Assembly: GCF_988242995.1 (NCBI RefSeq)
Contig: NZ_OZ547043.1
Length of the DNA stretch: 64,000 bases
Reading direction: 5' to 3' (one strand)
The notes beneath the pieces were generated by a model. It was not told the origin of the DNA and ran no database searches. It worked only from the letters and a program-made list of their open reading frames with translations. A program made the position numbers and the translations under genes. Positions 1 to 48,597 of this stretch are shown here, piece after piece; positions within the stretch are counted from its first letter, which is position 1; every line of letters begins with the position of its first letter.

Positions 1-297
1 GATAACGCCATCGATTTTACCCCCGAGAGCGGTCGTATAACGCTAAGCGCCGAAGTGGATCAGGAACACGTCACGCTTAAGGTGCTGGATACCGGTAGTG
101 GTATTCCTGACTACGCGCTGTCACGTATTTTTGAACGCTTTTACTCTTTGCCGCGTGCAAATGGGCAAAAAAGCAGCGGTCTGGGGTTGGCGTTCGTCAG
201 TGAGGTCGCCCGTTTGTTTAACGGCGAAGTCACGCTGCGCAACGTGCAGGAAGGTGGCGTGCTGGCCTCGCTTCGACTTCACCGTCACTTCACATAG
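1..297 (+). CDS. creC: Sensor histidine kinase CreC, C-terminal fragment (5' end lies outside the window)
   Basis: Frame-1 translation from position 1 is open to the stop at 295-297 and contains an HATPase-type motif (LKVLDTGSGIPDYALSRIFERFYSLP...GLGLAFV); sits just upstream of creD as in E. coli. Confidence 0.85.
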   Translation, partial: DNAIDFTPESGRITLSAEVDQEHVTLKVLDTGSGIPDYALSRIFERFYSLPRANGQKSSGLGLAFVSEVARLFNGEVTLRNVQEGGVLASLRLHRHFT

Positions 298-354
298 CTT
301 CAAATTCTTCCCACATAGCCTTCGTATCCTGCTGCCATTGCAAAGGAGAAGACT

Positions 355-1707
355 ATGTTGAAATCCCCCCTGTTCTGGAAAATGACCACCCTGTTTGGTG
401 CCGTATTGCTGTTGTTGATTCCGATAATGCTGATTCGGCAGGTGATTGTCGAACGTGCCGATTACCGTAGCGATGTGGAAGATGCGATTCGCCAAAGTAC
501 CAGCGGGCCGCAAAAACTCGTTGGGCCGCTTATCGCTATTCCTGTGACCGAGCTTTATACGGTACAGGAAGAGGATAAAACCGTGGAGCGGAAACGAAGT
601 TTTATCCATTTTTGGTTACCTGAGTCATTGATGGTTGATGGCAATCAGAACGTGGAAGAACGCAAGATAGGGATTTATACCGGTCAGGTCTGGCACAGTG
701 ATTTAACGCTAAAAGCCGATTTCGATGTTTCGCGTCTTAGCGAACTCGACGCGCCAAATATCACCTTTGGCAAGCCATTTATTGTGATTAGCGTCGGGGA
801 TGCGCGTGGTATTGGTGTGGTGAAAGCGCCTGAAGTTAACGGAACGGCGCTGACCATTGAACCCGGCACCGGGTTAGAGCAAGGCGGGCAGGGCGTGCAT
901 ATCCCTTTACCCGAAGGGGACTGGCGGAAGCAGAACCTGAAGCTGAATATGGCACTGAATTTAAGCGGTACCGGCGATCTTTCTGTGGTGCCTGCGGGGC
1001 GTAATAGCGAAATGACCTTAACCAGCAACTGGCCGCATCCCAGTTTTTTAGGTGATTTTCTACCAGCCAAACGGGAAGTTAGTGAGTCAGGTTTTCAGGC
1101 GCAATGGCAAAGCAGCTGGTTTGCTAATAATCTCGGTGAGCGTTTTGCTTCAGGCAATGATACCGGCTGGGAAAACTTCCCCGCGTTTAGCGTTGCAGTG
1201 ACGACGCCAGCCGATCAATACCAATTAACTGACCGGGCGACTAAGTATGCCATTCTGCTGATTGCGCTGACTTTTATGGCGTTCTTTGTTTTTGAAACGC
1301 TCACCGCGCAACGCTTACACCCAATGCAATATTTGCTGGTGGGGCTTTCATTAGTGATGTTTTATTTGCTCTTGCTGGCGCTTTCTGAACATACCGGTTT
1401 TACCGTGGCATGGATAATCGCCAGTCTGATTGGGGCGTTAATGAACGGTATTTATTTGCAGGCGGTATTGAAAGGTTGGCGCAACAGCATGTTGTTTACC
1501 CTCGCGCTGTTGCTGCTGGATGGTGTGATGTGGGGACTGCTCAACTCTGCCGATAGCGCGCTGTTGTTGGGAACCAGTGTGCTGGTGGTGGCGCTGGCCG
1601 GCATGATGTTTGTGACCCGTAATATCGACTGGTATGCGTTTTCACTGCCGAAAATGAAAGCCAGTAAAGAAGTTACAACGGACGATGAATTACGTATCTG
1701 GAAATAA
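355..1707 (+). CDS. creD: Inner membrane protein CreD
   Basis: 450-aa ORF with multiple hydrophobic segments; position between creC and arcA matches the E. coli cre operon. Confidence 0.9.
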   Translation: MLKSPLFWKMTTLFGAVLLLLIPIMLIRQVIVERADYRSDVEDAIRQSTSGPQKLVGPLIAIPVTELYTVQEEDKTVERKRSFIHFWLPESLMVDGNQNVEERKIGIYTGQVWHSDLTLKADFDVSRLSELDAPNITFGKPFIVISVGDARGIGVVKAPEVNGTALTIEPGTGLEQGGQGVHIPLPEGDWRKQNLKLNMALNLSGTGDLSVVPAGRNSEMTLTSNWPHPSFLGDFLPAKREVSESGFQAQWQSSWFANNLGERFASGNDTGWENFPAFSVAVTTPADQYQLTDRATKYAILLIALTFMAFFVFETLTAQRLHPMQYLLVGLSLVMFYLLLLALSEHTGFTVAWIIASLIGALMNGIYLQAVLKGWRNSMLFTLALLLLDGVMWGLLNSADSALLLGTSVLVVALAGMMFVTRNIDWYAFSLPKMKASKEVTTDDELRIWK

Positions 1708-1719
1708 GGTTGAAAAATA

Positions 1720-1750
1720 AAAACGGCGCTAAAAAGCGCCGTTTTTTTGA
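1720..1750. terminator. Bidirectional rho-independent terminator between convergent creD and arcA
   Basis: GC hairpin ACGGCGCT-AAAAA-AGCGCCGT flanked by an A-run upstream and a T-run downstream (aaaaataaaaacggcgctaaaaagcgccgtttttttga). Confidence 0.6.
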
Positions 1751-1765
1751 CGGTGGTAAAGCCGA

Positions 1766-2482
1766 TTAATCTTCCAGATCACCGCAGAAGCGATAACCTT
1801 CACCGTGAATGGTGGCGATGATTTCCGGCGTATCCGGCGTAGATTCGAAATGTTTACGAATACGGCGGATCGTCACGTCTACAGTACGGTCGTGTGGTTT
1901 CAGCTCACGGCCGGTCATTTTCTTCAGCAGTTCAGCACGAGACTGAATTTTGCCTGGGTTTTCACAGAAGTGAAGCATGGCGCGGAACTCACTGCGCGGC
2001 AGCTTGTACTGCTCGCCATCAGGGCCGATCAAAGAACGGCTGTTGATGTCCAGTTCCCAACCATTGAACTTGTAGCTTTCAACGCTACGACGTTCTTCGC
2101 TGACAGTACCCAGATTCATGGTACGGGACAGCAGGTTGCGTGCACGAATCGTCAGTTCACGCGGGTTGAACGGTTTGGTGATGTAGTCATCTGCACCGAT
2201 TTCGAGGCCGAGAATTTTATCGACTTCGTTGTCACGGCCAGTCAGGAACATCAACGCAACATTCGCCTGCTCGCGCAGTTCACGCGCTAACAGAAGACCG
2301 TTCTTACCCGGCAGATTGATATCCATGATCACCAGGTTGATGTCATATTCAGAGAGGATCTGATGCATTTCCGCGCCATCTGTCGCTTCGAAAACATCAT
2401 AGCCTTCCGCTTCGAAAATACTTTTCAACGTGTTGCGTGTTACCAACTCGTCTTCAACGATAAGAATGTGCGGGGTCTGCAT
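1766..2482 (-). CDS. arcA: Two-component response regulator ArcA (OmpR family)
   Basis: 238-aa ORF starting [30 protein letters not shown]... with a receiver domain and winged-helix C-terminus; recognised as ArcA. Confidence 0.95.
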
Positions 2483-2577
2483 GTTTGCTACCTAAATTGC
2501 CAACTAAATCGAAACAGGAAGTACAAAAGTCCCTGACCTGCCTGATGCATGCTGCAAATTAACATGATCGGCGTAAC

Positions 2578-2718
2578 ATGACTAAAGTACGTAATTGCGT
2601 TCTTGATGCACTTTCCATCAACGTCAACAACATCATTAGCTTGGTCGTGGGTACTTTCCCTCAGGACCCGACAGTGTCAAAAACGGCTGTCATCCTAACC
2701 ATTTTAACAGCAACATAA
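2578..2718 (+). CDS. yjjY: Small uncharacterised ORF (46 aa) at the position of K-12 yjjY
   Basis: ATG at 2578 with an in-frame stop after 46 codons; position relative to arcA and lasT matches annotated yjjY. No independent coding evidence. Confidence 0.3.
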   Translation: MTKVRNCVLDALSINVNNIISLVVGTFPQDPTVSKTAVILTILTAT

Positions 2719-3117
2719 CAGGCTAAGAGGGGCCGGACACCCAATAAAACTACGCTTCGTTGACATATATCAAGTTCAATTGTAGCACGTTAACAGTTTG
2801 ATGAAATCATCGTATCTAAATGCTAGCTTTCGTCACATTATTTTAATAATCCAACTAGTTGCATCATACAACTAATAAACGTGGTGAATCCAATTGTCGA
2901 GATTTATTTTTTATAAAATTATCCTAAGTAAACAGAAGGATATGTAGCATTTTTTAACAATTCAACCGTTAGTACAGTCAGGAAATAGTTTAGCCTTTTT
3001 TAAGCTAAGTAAAGGGCTTTTTCTGCGACTTACGTTAAGAATTTGTAAATTCGCACCGCGTAATAAGTTGACAGTGATCACCCTGTTCGCGGTCATTTGG
3101 TCAAGAAGAGTGGCAAT

Positions 3118-3804
3118 ATGCGTATAACGATTATTCTGGTCGCACCCGCCAGAGCAGAAAATATTGGGGCAGCGGCGCGGGCAATGAAAACGATGGGGTT
3201 TAGCGAACTGCGGATTGTCGATAGTCAGGCACATCTGGAGCCAGCCACTCGCTGGGTCGCACATGGATCTGGTGATATTATTGATAATATTAAAGTTTTC
3301 CCGACGCTGGCTGAATCGTTACACGATGTCGATTTCACTGTCGCCACCACTGCGCGCAGTCGGGCGAAATATCATTACTACGCCACGCCAGTAGAACTGG
3401 TGCCGCTGTTAGAGGAAAAATCTTCATGGATGAGCCATGCCGCGCTGGTGTTTGGTCGCGAAGATTCCGGGCTGACTAACGAAGAGTTAGCGTTGGCTGA
3501 CGTTCTTACTGGTGTGCCGATGGTGGCGGATTATCCTTCGCTCAATCTGGGGCAGGCGGTGATGGTCTATTGCTATCAATTAGCAACATTAATACAACAA
3601 CCGACGAAAAGTGACACAACGGCAGACCAACATCAACTGCAAGCTTTACGCGAACGAGCCATGGCATTGCTGACGACTCTGGCAGTGGCAGATGACATAA
3701 AACTGGTCGACTGGTTACAACAACGCCTGGGGCTTTTAGAGCAACGAGACACGGCAATGTTGCACCGTTTGCTGCATGATATTGAAAAAAATATCACCAA
3801 ATAA
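3118..3804 (+). CDS. lasT: SpoU/TrmH-family RNA methyltransferase (YjtD/LasT)
   Basis: ORF-track ORF 3097..3804; start chosen at the internal Met (MRITIILVAPARAENIGAAARAMKTMGF...) to give the 228-aa K-12 length. Confidence 0.8.
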   Translation: MRITIILVAPARAENIGAAARAMKTMGFSELRIVDSQAHLEPATRWVAHGSGDIIDNIKVFPTLAESLHDVDFTVATTARSRAKYHYYATPVELVPLLEEKSSWMSHAALVFGREDSGLTNEELALADVLTGVPMVADYPSLNLGQAVMVYCYQLATLIQQPTKSDTTADQHQLQALRERAMALLTTLAVADDIKLVDWLQQRLGLLEQRDTAMLHRLLHDIEKNITK

Positions 3805-9357: not shown

Positions 9358-9390
9358 ATGACAAATGCCGGGTAACAATCCGGCATTCAG

Positions 9391-9497
9391 CGCCTGATGC
9401 GACGCTGGCGCGTCTTATCAGGCCTACGTGAATTCTGCAATATATTGAATCTGCATGCTTTTGTAGGCCGGATAAGGCGTTCACGCCGCATCCGGCA
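9391..9497. repeat. BIME: two inverted REP palindromic units
   Basis: CGCCTGATGCGACGCTGGCGCGTCTTATCAGGCCTAC and the inverted GTAGGCCGGATAAGGCGTTCACGCCGCATCCGGCA match the E. coli REP/PU consensus. Confidence 0.7.
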
Positions 9498-9509
9498 TTG
9501 ACTACAAAC

Positions 9510-10286
9510 TTAACGCTGCTCGTAGCGTTTAAACACCAGTTCGCCATTGCTGGAGGAAGCTTCATCAAAGAAGTAACCTTCGCTATTAAAACCAGTCAGT
9601 TGCTCTGGTTTGGTCAGCCGATTTTCAATAATGAAACGACTCATCAGACCGCGTGCTTTCTTAGCGTAGAAGCTGATTATCTTAAATTTGCCGTTCTTCT
9701 CATCGAGGAACACCGGCTTGATAATCTCGGCATTCAATTTCTTCGGCTTCACCGATTTAAAATACTCATCTGACGCCAGATTAATCACCACATTATCGCC
9801 TTGTGCTGCGAGCGCCTCGTTCAGCTTGTTGGTGATGATATCTCCCCAGAATTGATACAGATCTTTCCCTCGGGCATTCTCAAGACGGATCCCCATTTCC
9901 AGACGATAAGGCTGCATTAAATCGAGCGGGCGCAGTACGCCATACAAGCCGGAAAGCATTCGCAAATGCTGTTGGGCAAAATCGAAATCGTCTTCGCTGA
10001 AGGTTTCGGCCTGCAAGCCGGTGTAGACATCACCTTTAAACGCCAGAATCGCCTGGCGGGCATTCTCCGGCGTGAAATCTGGCTGCCAGTCATGAAAGCG
10101 AGCGGCGTTGATACCTGCCAGTTTGTCGCTGATACGCATCAGCGTGCTAATCTGCGGAGGCGTCAGTTTCCGCGCTTCATGGATCAACTGCTGGGAATTG
10201 TCTAACAGCTCCGGCAGTGTATATCGCGTGGTGGTCAACGGGCTTTGGTAATCAAGCGTTTTCGCAGGTGAAATAAGAATCAGCAT
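9510..10286 (-). CDS. yaaA: Peroxide stress protein YaaA (DUF328/UPF0246)
   Basis: 258-aa [32 protein letters not shown]...; conserved position. Confidence 0.9.
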
Positions 10287-33437: not shown

Positions 33438-33931
33438 TGAGTCAATCGATCTGTTCAACAGGGCTACGCTGGCTGTGGCTGGTGGTAGTCGTGCTGATTA
33501 TCGATCTGGGCAGCAAATACCTGATCCTCCAGAACTTTGCTCTGGGGGATACGGTCCCGCTGTTCCCGTCGCTTAATCTGCATTATGCGCGTAACTATGG
33601 CGCGGCGTTTAGTTTCCTTGCCGATAGCGGCGGCTGGCAGCGTTGGTTCTTTGCCGGTATTGCGATTGGTATTAGCGTGATCCTGGCAGTGATGATGTAT
33701 CGCTCGAAGGCCACGCAGAAGCTAAACAATATCGCTTACGCGCTGATTATTGGCGGCGCACTGGGCAACCTGTTCGACCGCCTGTGGCACGGCTTCGTTG
33801 TCGATATGATCGACTTCTACGTCGGCGACTGGCACTTCGCCACCTTCAACCTTGCCGATACTGCCATCTGTGTCGGTGCGGCACTGATTGTGCTGGAAGG
33901 TTTTTTACCTTCTAAAGCGAAAAAACAATAA
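33437..33931 (+). CDS. lspA: Lipoprotein signal peptidase (signal peptidase II)
   Basis: 164-aa membrane ORF; its start shares one base with the ileS stop (TGATG). Confidence 0.95.
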
Positions 33932-33939
33932 TAAACCCT

Positions 33940-33988
33940 GCCGGATGCGGCCTACAGATTGCTGCGAAATCGTAGACCGCATCCGGCA
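33940..33988. repeat. REP-like palindrome between lspA and fkpB
   Basis: TGCCGGATGCGGCCTAC...GTAGACCGCATCCGGCA forms an inverted repeat built on the GCCGGATGCGG REP motif. Confidence 0.5.
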
Positions 33989-34018
33989 AAAATCCTCAAA
34001 ATATAAGAGCAAACCTGC

Positions 34019-42913: not shown

Positions 42914-42997
42914 TCGCCGGATGCGATGCTGGCGCATCTTATATGGCCTACGGTTCCTTTCCAGCTAGGTCGGATAAGGCGTTTACGCCGCATCCGG
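42914..42997. repeat. BIME: two inverted REP units between caiF and caiE
   Basis: CGCCGGATGCGATGCTGGCGCATCTTATATGGCCTAC and TAGGTCGGATAAGGCGTTTACGCCGCATCCGG. Confidence 0.7.
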
Positions 42998-43002
42998 AAA
43001 GA

Positions 43003-43593
43003 TCACCGTTTCGGCGTCACATCCGTCGTCCCCTGCAAACGGGGGCGATTTTCCTCCATTTGCCTCAGTGGTTGTGTTTCATGTAACGATGCATGACAGC
43101 GCCCGACAAGATCCTGATACTCTTTGGTATTCAACCGTTTCCAGTGTAACTCGTCGCCACTAACAGTGCGTACAGCGTGGGCTGGCGTACCGATCAACAA
43201 CTGGCGTTTCTCGCCGCGAAAGCCCGCTTTGACAAAGCTCATGGCGGCAACAATGCTCTCTTCGCCAATGACCGCGCCATCCATAATCACGCTGTTCATC
43301 CCGACCAATGCATCGCGACCAATCACACAACCATGCAGGATCGCTCCGTGCCCGATATGGCCGTTTTCCCCAACGATAGTGTCAGTGTCGCAGTAGCCAT
43401 GCATAATGCAGCCATCCTGAATATTGGCTCCCGCTTGCACGATCAACCGCCCGTAATCACCACGCAGTGAGGCGAGTGGGCCGATGTAGACACCGGCTCC
43501 CACAATCACATCGCCAATCAATACTGCACTGGGATGGACAAACGCCGTCGGGTGAACCACCGGAATTAACCCCTCAAAGGCGTAATAGCTCAC
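43003..43593 (-). CDS. caiE: Carnitine operon protein CaiE (hexapeptide-repeat transferase family)
   Basis: ORF-track ORF 43003..43614; a GTG start at 43593 ([34 protein letters not shown]...) gives the 196-aa form, but the upstream ATG at 43614 cannot be excluded. Confidence 0.8.
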
Positions 43594-47371: not shown

Positions 47372-47444
<73 letters not shown>

Positions 47445-47454
47445 GCGCACGGAC

Positions 47455-48597
47455 TTAGCGGTATTGCTTCAGCACCGCGCGACCCAGCGTCAGGATCTGC
47501 ATTTCGTCAGATCCTCCGGAGACGCGGTCTACACGCAGGTCACGCCAGAAGCGGCTGATGCGGTGGTTGCCCGCAATCCCGACACCGCCCAGCACCTGCA
47601 TTGCGCTATCCACCACTTCAAATGCCGCATTGGCGCAGAAGTATTTGCACATCGCTGCATCGCCAGAGGTGGTGGTGCCGTTGTCTGCTTTCCACGCTGC
47701 TTCATACAGCATGTTTTTCATGGAGTTTAATTTGATCGCCATGTGGGCGAATTTTTCCTGAATCAACTGGAAACGACCAATAGCCTCGCCAAACTGCACG
47801 CGCTGGTTGGCGTAGCGCGCCGCATCTTCAAAGGCGCACATCGCCGTACCGTAGTTGGTCAGGGCTACCAGGAAACGTTCATGGTCGAACTCTTCTTTGA
47901 CGCGGTTAAAGCCGTTACCTTCGCGACCGAACATGTCTTTCTCGTCCAGTTCCACGTCGTCAAAGGTGATTTCACAGCAGCTATCCATACGCAGACCGAG
48001 CTTTTCAAGTTTGGTCACTTTGATGCCCGGTTTGCTCATATCAACAAACCATTCGGTGTAGACAGGTTTGTCCGGAGAAGCCCCGTCGCGCGCCATCACC
48101 ACGATGTACGGGGTGTAGGCGCTGCTGGTAATAAAACACTTACTACCATTAAGATAAATCTTACCATTTCTACGGGTATAAGTCGTTTTCAGGCTACCCA
48201 CGTCGGAGCCCGCGCCCGGTTCGGTAATCGCTGAGTTCCACATCTGCTTACCGGTGCCGCGGAAAGCCATAATCTTGTCGATCTGCTCTTGTGTGCCTTC
48301 GCGCAGGAAGGTATTGAACCCGCCCGGCAACTGGTACAGCACATAGGTTGGTGCCCCCAGACGTCCCAGCTCCATCCACACGGCGGCGAGAGTAACAAAC
48401 CCCGCGTCCAGACCACCGTGCTCTTCAGGGATCAGCAGACTGTCGATCCCCATATCCGCCAGTGCTTTGACAAAACGTTCCGGGTAGACGCTGTCACGGT
48501 CGCACTCGGCAAAATAGGCCTCCCAGTTTTCGCTGGCCATCAGTTCGCGGATACCGGCGACAAACAGTTCCTGCTCATCATTTAAATTAAAATCCAT
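47455..48597 (-). CDS. caiA: Crotonobetainyl-CoA reductase (acyl-CoA dehydrogenase family)
   Basis: 380-aa [53 protein letters not shown]... Confidence 0.95.

Follow-up and report, generated by a model that had tools for sequence, protein, structure and literature searches.

REP elements of the Escherichia coli thr-apaH region as hairpin-loop targets of the insertion sequence IS1397

Background

The insertion sequence IS1397 has been described as specific for REP sequences (Bachellier 1997, Clement 1999, Wilde 2001, 2003, as cited in PMC1525189), and the choice of the REP target is attributed to its transposase (Wilde et al. 2003, via PMC1525189). The insertions analysed here involve the same element and resemble the published ones in their position in the central REP loop, in their 3-4 bp duplications, in the occurrence of both orientations and in the use of Y as well as Z REPs. 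Within the same IS3 family, ISKpn1 of Klebsiella and ISPsy8 of P. syringae also insert at the symmetry axis of REP hairpins (PMC1525189), the latter with a 3-bp duplication at the P. syringae REPs (PMC1525189). The hosts of these two elements, and the REP sequences found in them, differ from those of IS1397. REP-specific insertion is moreover known for IS621, ISPpu9 and ISPpu10, which belong to the IS110 family. Although these three are, like IS1397, REP-specific inserters, they depend on a DEDD recombinase of unrelated type, which an RNA guides to specific sequences, and leave no 3-4 bp loop duplication, and their mechanism is not comparable.

REP hairpins are also classical barriers to 3' exonucleases, and REP-dependent mRNA stabilisation was reportedly described by Newbury and Higgins in 1987-88. 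At the level of translation, REPs lying no more than 15 nt from a stop codon have been associated with ribosome stalling and with reduced expression of the gene that precedes them (Liang et al. 2015, in the account of PMC12306157). Among the composite arrangements of REPs, the BIME-1 is defined as an inverted pair of one Y and one long Z (Z1) REP, present in single copy, with a conserved long L linker between them that contains an IHF site (Bachellier et al., as given in PMC3333891).

The REP specificity of IS1397 has thus been known since 1997-1999 and the targeting of REPs and BIMEs described below confirms known biology; as REP/BIME elements are textbook targets of IS1397 in E. coli, that finding in itself matters little. 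What is computed here is the occupancy of yaaX/yaaA, caiF/caiE and caiB/caiA across genomes, which had been predicted for one strain from sequence only, and the prediction, when set against 5,426 genomes, held for every intact BIME listed. We are highly confident in the following three statements taken jointly: the REPs and BIMEs of this region are loop targets of IS1397, the BIME at lspA/fkpB is decayed, and the elements probably act at the RNA level.

Results and discussion

Gene context and REP inventory

The window, by which we mean the whole stretch of 64,000 nucleotides that was analysed, is the thr-apaH region of E. coli. Positions 3829-58214 are colinear with K-12 1-50000 at 97-99% identity, and this colinearity gives the gene contexts yaaX/yaaA, lspA/fkpB, caiF/caiE, caiB/caiA and folA/apaH. 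The genome collection searched throughout consisted of 5,426 complete E. coli genomes.

The only major departure from this colinearity is a 6.5-kb insert (22274-28778) between nhaR and rpsT, encoding a chaperone-usher fimbrial operon and espX1; K-12 is without this insert and has IS1A there instead. Coverage of the insert reaches at least 80% in 1,192 of the 5,426 genomes, and its best matches, 99.5-99.6% identical, come from an ivory gull isolate and from pig O139:H1 strains.

The current RefSeq annotation of K-12 lists no REP or RIP features in its first 50 kb, and REPs were therefore called by motif and folding, with both head and tail required for a canonical REP. The head motif GCCKGATGCGRCG, with at most one mismatch, was found 12 times in the window as against 0.56 times expected from shuffles. 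Five canonical REPs carry head and tail, at 9392-9427(+), 9463-9496(-), 42916-42951(+), 47373-47406(+) and 47408-47443(-). A half-site scan added a degenerate Y-like REP at 42965-42998(-) and a REP split by an insertion sequence, with its halves at 58541-58554 and 59996-60012, and gave no further complete REP in the window, so that the list of elements in the initial annotation proved complete. The five canonical copies, the degenerate one and the split one show the features of the family, namely imperfect dyad symmetry over about 35 bp, the head GCC(G/T)GATGCG and the tail ...TTATC(C/A)GGCCTAC, and all copies are extragenic, lying between annotated genes. The predicted fold of a single REP is a hairpin of about -21 kcal/mol whose loop measures 4 nt (z-scores between -4.9 and -6.2). 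With 584 REPs counted in K-12 (PMC3333891), or about 8 per 64 kb, the roughly 7 REPs per 64 kb of the window represent a normal E. coli density.

Head-only matches at 1826, 7524, 8687, 10909, 13384, 14994, 34216, 38254, 52577 and 52925 are without a tail and were attributed to chance.

The location of the hairpins at gene ends, like that of terminators, could lead one to regard them as chance palindromes or as ordinary Rho-independent terminators outside the REP family. However, the head motif is enriched about 20-fold and none of the shuffles reached 12 occurrences, the consensus of head and tail, including GGCCTAC, is conserved, and no terminator with a T-run after the stem was found at yaaX/yaaA. 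Moreover, the yaaX/yaaA BIME used as a query finds 40 or more matching places in each of 4,183 records, and the BIME therefore belongs to a high-copy family. Enrichment, consensus and copy number already refute the interpretation as chance palindromes or terminators, to which we assign a negligible probability. The listed elements are ordinary E. coli members of the REP (palindromic unit) family arranged as BIMEs.

Architecture of the BIMEs

The paired inverted REPs which the initial annotation had reported at three BIMEs were recovered, its coordinates being right to 1-2 nt. The features of the window are the following:

9366-9387, plus strand: small GCCGG...CCGGC hairpin just upstream of the yaaX/yaaA BIME, looks like a truncated REP
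9392-9427, plus strand: long Z-type REP, yaaX/yaaA; loop TGGC at 9406-9409; -21.4 kcal/mol, z -5.5
9428-9462, no strand: L-type linker of 35 bp, BIME-1 (RIP); IHF-like site at 9438-9450(-)
9463-9496, minus strand: Y-type REP, yaaX/yaaA; loop at 9480-9483; 13 nt from the yaaA stop codon (9510-9512)
33939-33988, plus strand: decayed two-REP BIME, lspA/fkpB; REP cores gone, outer arms forming one long hairpin
42916-42951, plus strand: degenerate long Z-like REP, caiF/caiE; loop TGGC at 42930-42933
42965-42998, minus strand: Y-like REP, caiF/caiE; 4 nt from the caiE stop codon (TGA 43003-43005)
47373-47406, plus strand: Y-type REP, caiA-caiB; -21.3 kcal/mol
47408-47443, minus strand: long Z-type REP, caiA-caiB; loop at 47426-47429; 11 nt from the caiA stop codon (47455-47457)
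58541-58558, plus strand: folA/apaH REP, left half; its last three nucleotides are the GGT target duplication (58556-58558)
58559-59990, minus strand: IS1397, 1,432 bp; 99.9% identity, Pfam domains, terminal repeats, A6G
59991-60012, plus strand: second GGT (59991-59993) and right half of the folA/apaH REP

The element between yaaX and yaaA consists of a Z REP (9392-9427, +), a 35-bp linker and a Y REP (9463-9496, -) in single copy, and is a BIME-1. It has the same architecture as the described BIME-1/RIP/RIB elements, with the REPs tail to tail and a candidate IHF site in the linker, and no architectural difference from them was seen. The putative IHF site, ATTCAATATATTG, agrees with the consensus WATCAANNNNTTR at 12 of 13 positions, and such a site is found in this BIME only, none being present in the other BIMEs of the window. 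At this locus K-12 has an element of 99% identity, and 3,366 genomes or more carry an identical or almost identical BIME.

The L linker is also recognised by an Rfam model, ES036 (CssrF sRNA), at 9420-9462(-), its 38.8 bits lying just above the gathering threshold of 37.6; a literature search on ES036 gave no relevant report. Both REPs are matched by the REP-derived family naRNA4 (9366-9424 and 9466-9531, +) below threshold, with 47 and 43 bits against 59.5, and the small hairpin at 9366-9387 aligns with the first hairpin of naRNA4, likewise below threshold. These Rfam 'sRNA' families, ES036 and naRNA4, are in effect BIME sequences.

The two BIMEs of the cai region span 42916-42998 (caiF/caiE) and 47373-47443 (caiB/caiA). 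In the former the left REP folds more weakly (-12.9 kcal/mol, z -1.7), and the K-12 allele is shorter and without the second REP. In the latter the REPs are only 1 nt apart, the K-12 linker being 12 nt long. BIME-2 elements consist of Y and short z2 REPs with S/s/l/r linkers and are usually in tandem, whereas both cai elements contain a long Z and are present in single copy. Since they combine Y and long Z without an L linker they fit neither BIME-1 nor BIME-2, and we infer that both, with their short linkers, are atypical BIMEs.

The intergenic region caiF/caiE is highly polymorphic, as seen from the REP absence in K-12, from remnants of IS1397 and from an extra REP in strain Ch1.

At lspA/fkpB the initial annotation had reported a REP-like hairpin (33940-33988). 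The hairpin is there, with its position right to 1 nt, but it is not an intact REP. At the same place (25719-25785) K-12 has two full REPs, and the alignment shows two mirror-image deletions of 20 bp and 18 bp, one in each REP core, which leave only the outer arms and the linker; the lost cores include the loops that IS1397 uses. The remaining sequence (33936-33992) folds into a near-perfect hairpin of -33.3 kcal/mol (z -7.6). The mirror symmetry leads us to speculate that the deletions arose by palindrome-templated correction (template switching) and not as two independent deletions.

The resident IS1397 at folA/apaH

The insertion sequence at 58559, which had been called IS1397 from its letters only, is indeed an intact copy of this element. 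Over its 1,432 bp it is 99.9% identical to RefSeq copies annotated as 'IS3-like element IS1397 family transposase'. IS1397, an element of about 1.43 kb, belongs to the IS150 group of the IS3 family. The minus strand encodes the transposase orfAB (59939 to 58591), and an A6G motif for the -1 frameshift between orfA and orfB is found at 59466; near-identical copies are annotated 'programmed frameshift'. Pfam domains HTH_28 and HTH_Tnp_1 were identified in OrfA and HTH_21, rve and rve_2 (DDE) in OrfB. The terminal inverted repeats are imperfect and begin with TGAACTG, and the two ends agree at 15 of their first 16 positions.

This copy interrupts the 5-nt loop of a solitary REP and is flanked by a GGT duplication. 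In the 5,426 complete genomes IS1397 was not found beside folA in either orientation; the insertion is therefore private to the source strain, and the site differs in this from the published IS1397 insertions. An intact and strain-private copy suggests recent movement of IS1397 in this lineage. All intact REPs of the window are permissive targets for it.

Target specificity of IS1397

In order not to depend on the flanks, a sample of 15 IS1397 copies was drawn from searches with the element only, and represents 11 distinct events. In each of the 11 the element interrupts a REP hairpin within its loop and is flanked by a duplication of 3-4 bp: zinT/msrQ (two orientations), yphA/yphB, rrf/mobB, ybaL/gsk, trmL/cysE, ygcQ/ygcP, yggM/hemW, IS110/rrf, avtA/ysaA (another BIME-1) and tRNA-Pro/eptB. 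Together with six events at the BIMEs of the window and the resident copy, 18 of 18 distinct events are in REP loops with 3-4 bp duplications. The loop sequences vary (TGGC, GTGA, GCT, ATT, TTT, GTAC and others) and Y and Z REPs are used as well as degenerate ones, hence the feature common to the targets is a hairpin with GCCGGAT/ATCCGGC arms and not the sequence of the loop.

Strains differ in the orientation of the IS1397 copy in the zinT/msrQ REP loop and share its 3-bp duplication (GCT/AGC), and this REP outside the window has therefore been used more than once independently.

The statement that the element is PU-specific accordingly describes all 18 events, but an absolute specificity is contradicted by two cases. 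In CFT073 only one of two IS1397 copies was scored as REP-associated by Tobes & Pareja (PMC1525189), and a metagenomic junction has no REP. This second case is a contig that starts with an IS1397 end (97 of 99 nt identical), followed immediately by an rhs-family gene with 92% identity to E. coli rhs. Insertion outside a REP, a rearrangement next to the element and a chimeric assembly are all conceivable explanations.

IS1397, an IS3-family element with a copy-out/paste-in mode of transposition, integrates at the dyad axis of the REP, in the loop of 4-5 nt, and duplicates 3-4 bp. Judging from the literature, the transposase itself would read the REP.

Occupancy of the BIMEs in other strains

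A chimeric query, made by joining a unique left flank from each of the four loci with both ends of IS1397 and designed to rank genomes with junctions at the top, was searched against the 5,426 genomes. Full IS1397 junctions were found in 13 records: caiF/caiE is occupied in ten genomes, yaaX/yaaA in two, one for each REP, and caiB/caiA in one, while lspA/fkpB gave none among the 5,426 genomes. The exact junctions were read at eight loci, two of them remnant cases. The comparison with other strains that the initial annotation had proposed thus places IS1397 in REP loops at three of the four listed loci.

At yaaX/yaaA, strain 042 carries IS1397 in the Y REP with a GTTC duplication and strain 95-3322 carries it exactly in the loop of the Z REP with a TGGC duplication. 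In strain SK1144 the element is inserted exactly in the loop of the Z REP between caiA and caiB, with a GTCA duplication; being inside caiTABCDE, this copy would be expected to be polar on caiBCDE. In the left REP of caiF/caiE the loop contains IS1397 in both orientations, with TGGC or TGG duplications.

Remnants of IS1397 were found at caiF/caiE in 129 genomes, 128 with a 101-bp end and one with a larger deletion that leaves 204 bp. The left junction of the 101-bp remnant is that of one of the full copies at caiF/caiE, and the right half of the REP is lost; the remnant is a deletion derivative of that full-copy insertion. At least two, and probably three, insertion events have occurred at caiF/caiE, the genome counts being raw and without correction for ancestry. 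The insertions at yaaX/yaaA, caiF/caiE and caiB/caiA provide concrete polymorphic markers.

Hotspots or ordinary targets

Each of the listed elements had been proposed as a candidate insertion hotspot, and as targets three of them bear this out. Whether they attract IS1397 above the average REP is another question. In favour of true hotspots one can cite the left REP of caiF/caiE, hit in both orientations with TGGC/TGG duplications, with its 101-bp and 204-bp remnants and with some 139 of the 5,426 genomes now or formerly occupied, as well as the independent hits in both REPs of yaaX/yaaA. However, most of the caiF/caiE genomes share one left junction and thus descend from one old inherited event, and REPs elsewhere are also reused, such as the one at zinT/msrQ in both orientations.

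Full-length IS1397 is present in 1,707 of the 5,426 complete genomes and any match in 3,485; the collection contains 7,614 IS1397 places, many of which are short relics. Spread uniformly over about 584 REPs, these places would give some 10-13 occupied genomes per REP, a rough estimate that ignores kinship. The occupancy of yaaX/yaaA (two genomes), caiB/caiA (one) and lspA/fkpB (none) is at or below this value, and folA/apaH is occupied in no genome besides that of the window. Only caiF/caiE exceeds it, chiefly through the inheritance of a single old insertion by many genomes. The estimate gives the hotspot label no support and the listed BIMEs look like ordinary permissive REPs; we consider it improbable that they are true hotspots.

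A relic of 65 bp from an IS1397 end (95% identity) was noticed in K-12, BL21 and many other genomes free of IS1397, for instance at 258142-258206 of NZ_CP097882.1, a K-12 MG1655 derivative. Its left side adjoins the REP half GGCCGGATAAGGCGTTTA, and an ISEc1/yhhI element lies to its right. Many of the 3,485 genomes counted above as having any match owe it to this relic.

Position at gene ends and possible regulatory role

The initial annotation had also placed the elements at operon boundaries. From gene order and strands this is correct for yaaX/yaaA and caiF/caiE, which are convergent gene ends, but not for caiB/caiA, which lies between two cistrons of an operon that we take to be caiTABCDE; lspA/fkpB is intra-operonic too, presumably within ileS-lspA-fkpB-ispH. 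The distances from stop codon to REP are:

yaaX: 34 nt
yaaA: 13 nt (9496-9512)
caiF: 31 nt
caiE: 4 nt (42998-43005)
caiA: 11 nt (47443-47457)
lspA: 7 nt (33929-33939)

The hairpin distances for yaaA, caiE, caiA and lspA are in the published range of ribosome stalling.

A role in mRNA stability, as had been suggested, is plausible from the literature. The REPs would block 3' exonucleases at the RNA level independently of any insertion sequence, and those within 15 nt of a stop codon (yaaA, caiE, caiA, lspA) could, by the published rules, dampen translation of the upstream gene. The described systems of REP-dependent mRNA control likewise have intercistronic REPs, as in caiA-caiB and lspA-fkpB, or REPs at 3' ends, four of those here lying within 15 nt; the likeness is one of position only.

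One may go further and regard the elements mainly as RNA/DNA regulatory modules, serving 3'-end protection, translation damping and IHF binding, to which the targeting by IS1397 is incidental. The REPs found 4-13 nt past the stop codons of yaaA, caiE, caiA and lspA, within the 15-nt rule as presented in PMC12306157, speak for this, and so do the stability of the hairpins, the restriction of the IHF-like site to the L linker and the near-identity of the yaaX/yaaA BIME in those 3,366 or more genomes. The other three loci, however, are highly polymorphic with respect to K-12, with a REP lost, cores deleted or the linker shortened, and this argues against a strong constraint on their exact form. 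On balance we see the case for a mainly regulatory nature as evenly poised. It is compatible with our preferred explanation, in which the REPs are targets of IS1397, and insertions like those described above can split REPs from the genes that they follow.

Elements with similar termini

A scan of metagenomes with the terminal repeat of IS1397 returned 120 loci, of which only three are IS1397. About 115 other insertion sequences share its 25-nt termini (TGAACTGMACCCCAAA...TGGACA), their OrfB being 30-55% identical. When the empty sites were reconstructed, the insertion point was in a hairpin loop in 15 of 17 distinct complete copies, and the mean fold energy of these sites was -17.4 kcal/mol as compared with -9.4 kcal/mol in control windows (p = 6e-6). 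An A-run that stops about 11 nt short of the element's end is present in 60% of 113 distinct single-end flanks, as against 16% of the controls (p = 1e-25). The sites of these relatives look like Rho-independent terminators, in the order A-run/stem/loop/stem/T-run, and support a structure-based recognition of the target for the whole group. The behaviour of ISPsy8 at the REPs of P. syringae is like that of these relatives (PMC1525189). A search of the literature for elements of the IS3/IS150 group that target terminators found nothing specific, a result that does not by itself establish newness.

For IS1397, the varied loops together with the presence of these relatives in terminator loops suggest that a hairpin or palindrome would be recognised rather than the loop sequence. 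We tentatively raise the possibility, which we hold to be rather less probable than its opposite, that the REP specificity of IS1397 is one host-specific case of a wider, perhaps undescribed, hunting for hairpin loops by IS150-group elements with the same termini in many kinds of bacteria. If this were true, the transposase would recognise the geometry of a hairpin or palindrome and not the REP sequence.

The terminator-like sites include paired Neisseria uptake sequences, and this sequence was observed in 11 of the single-end flanks.
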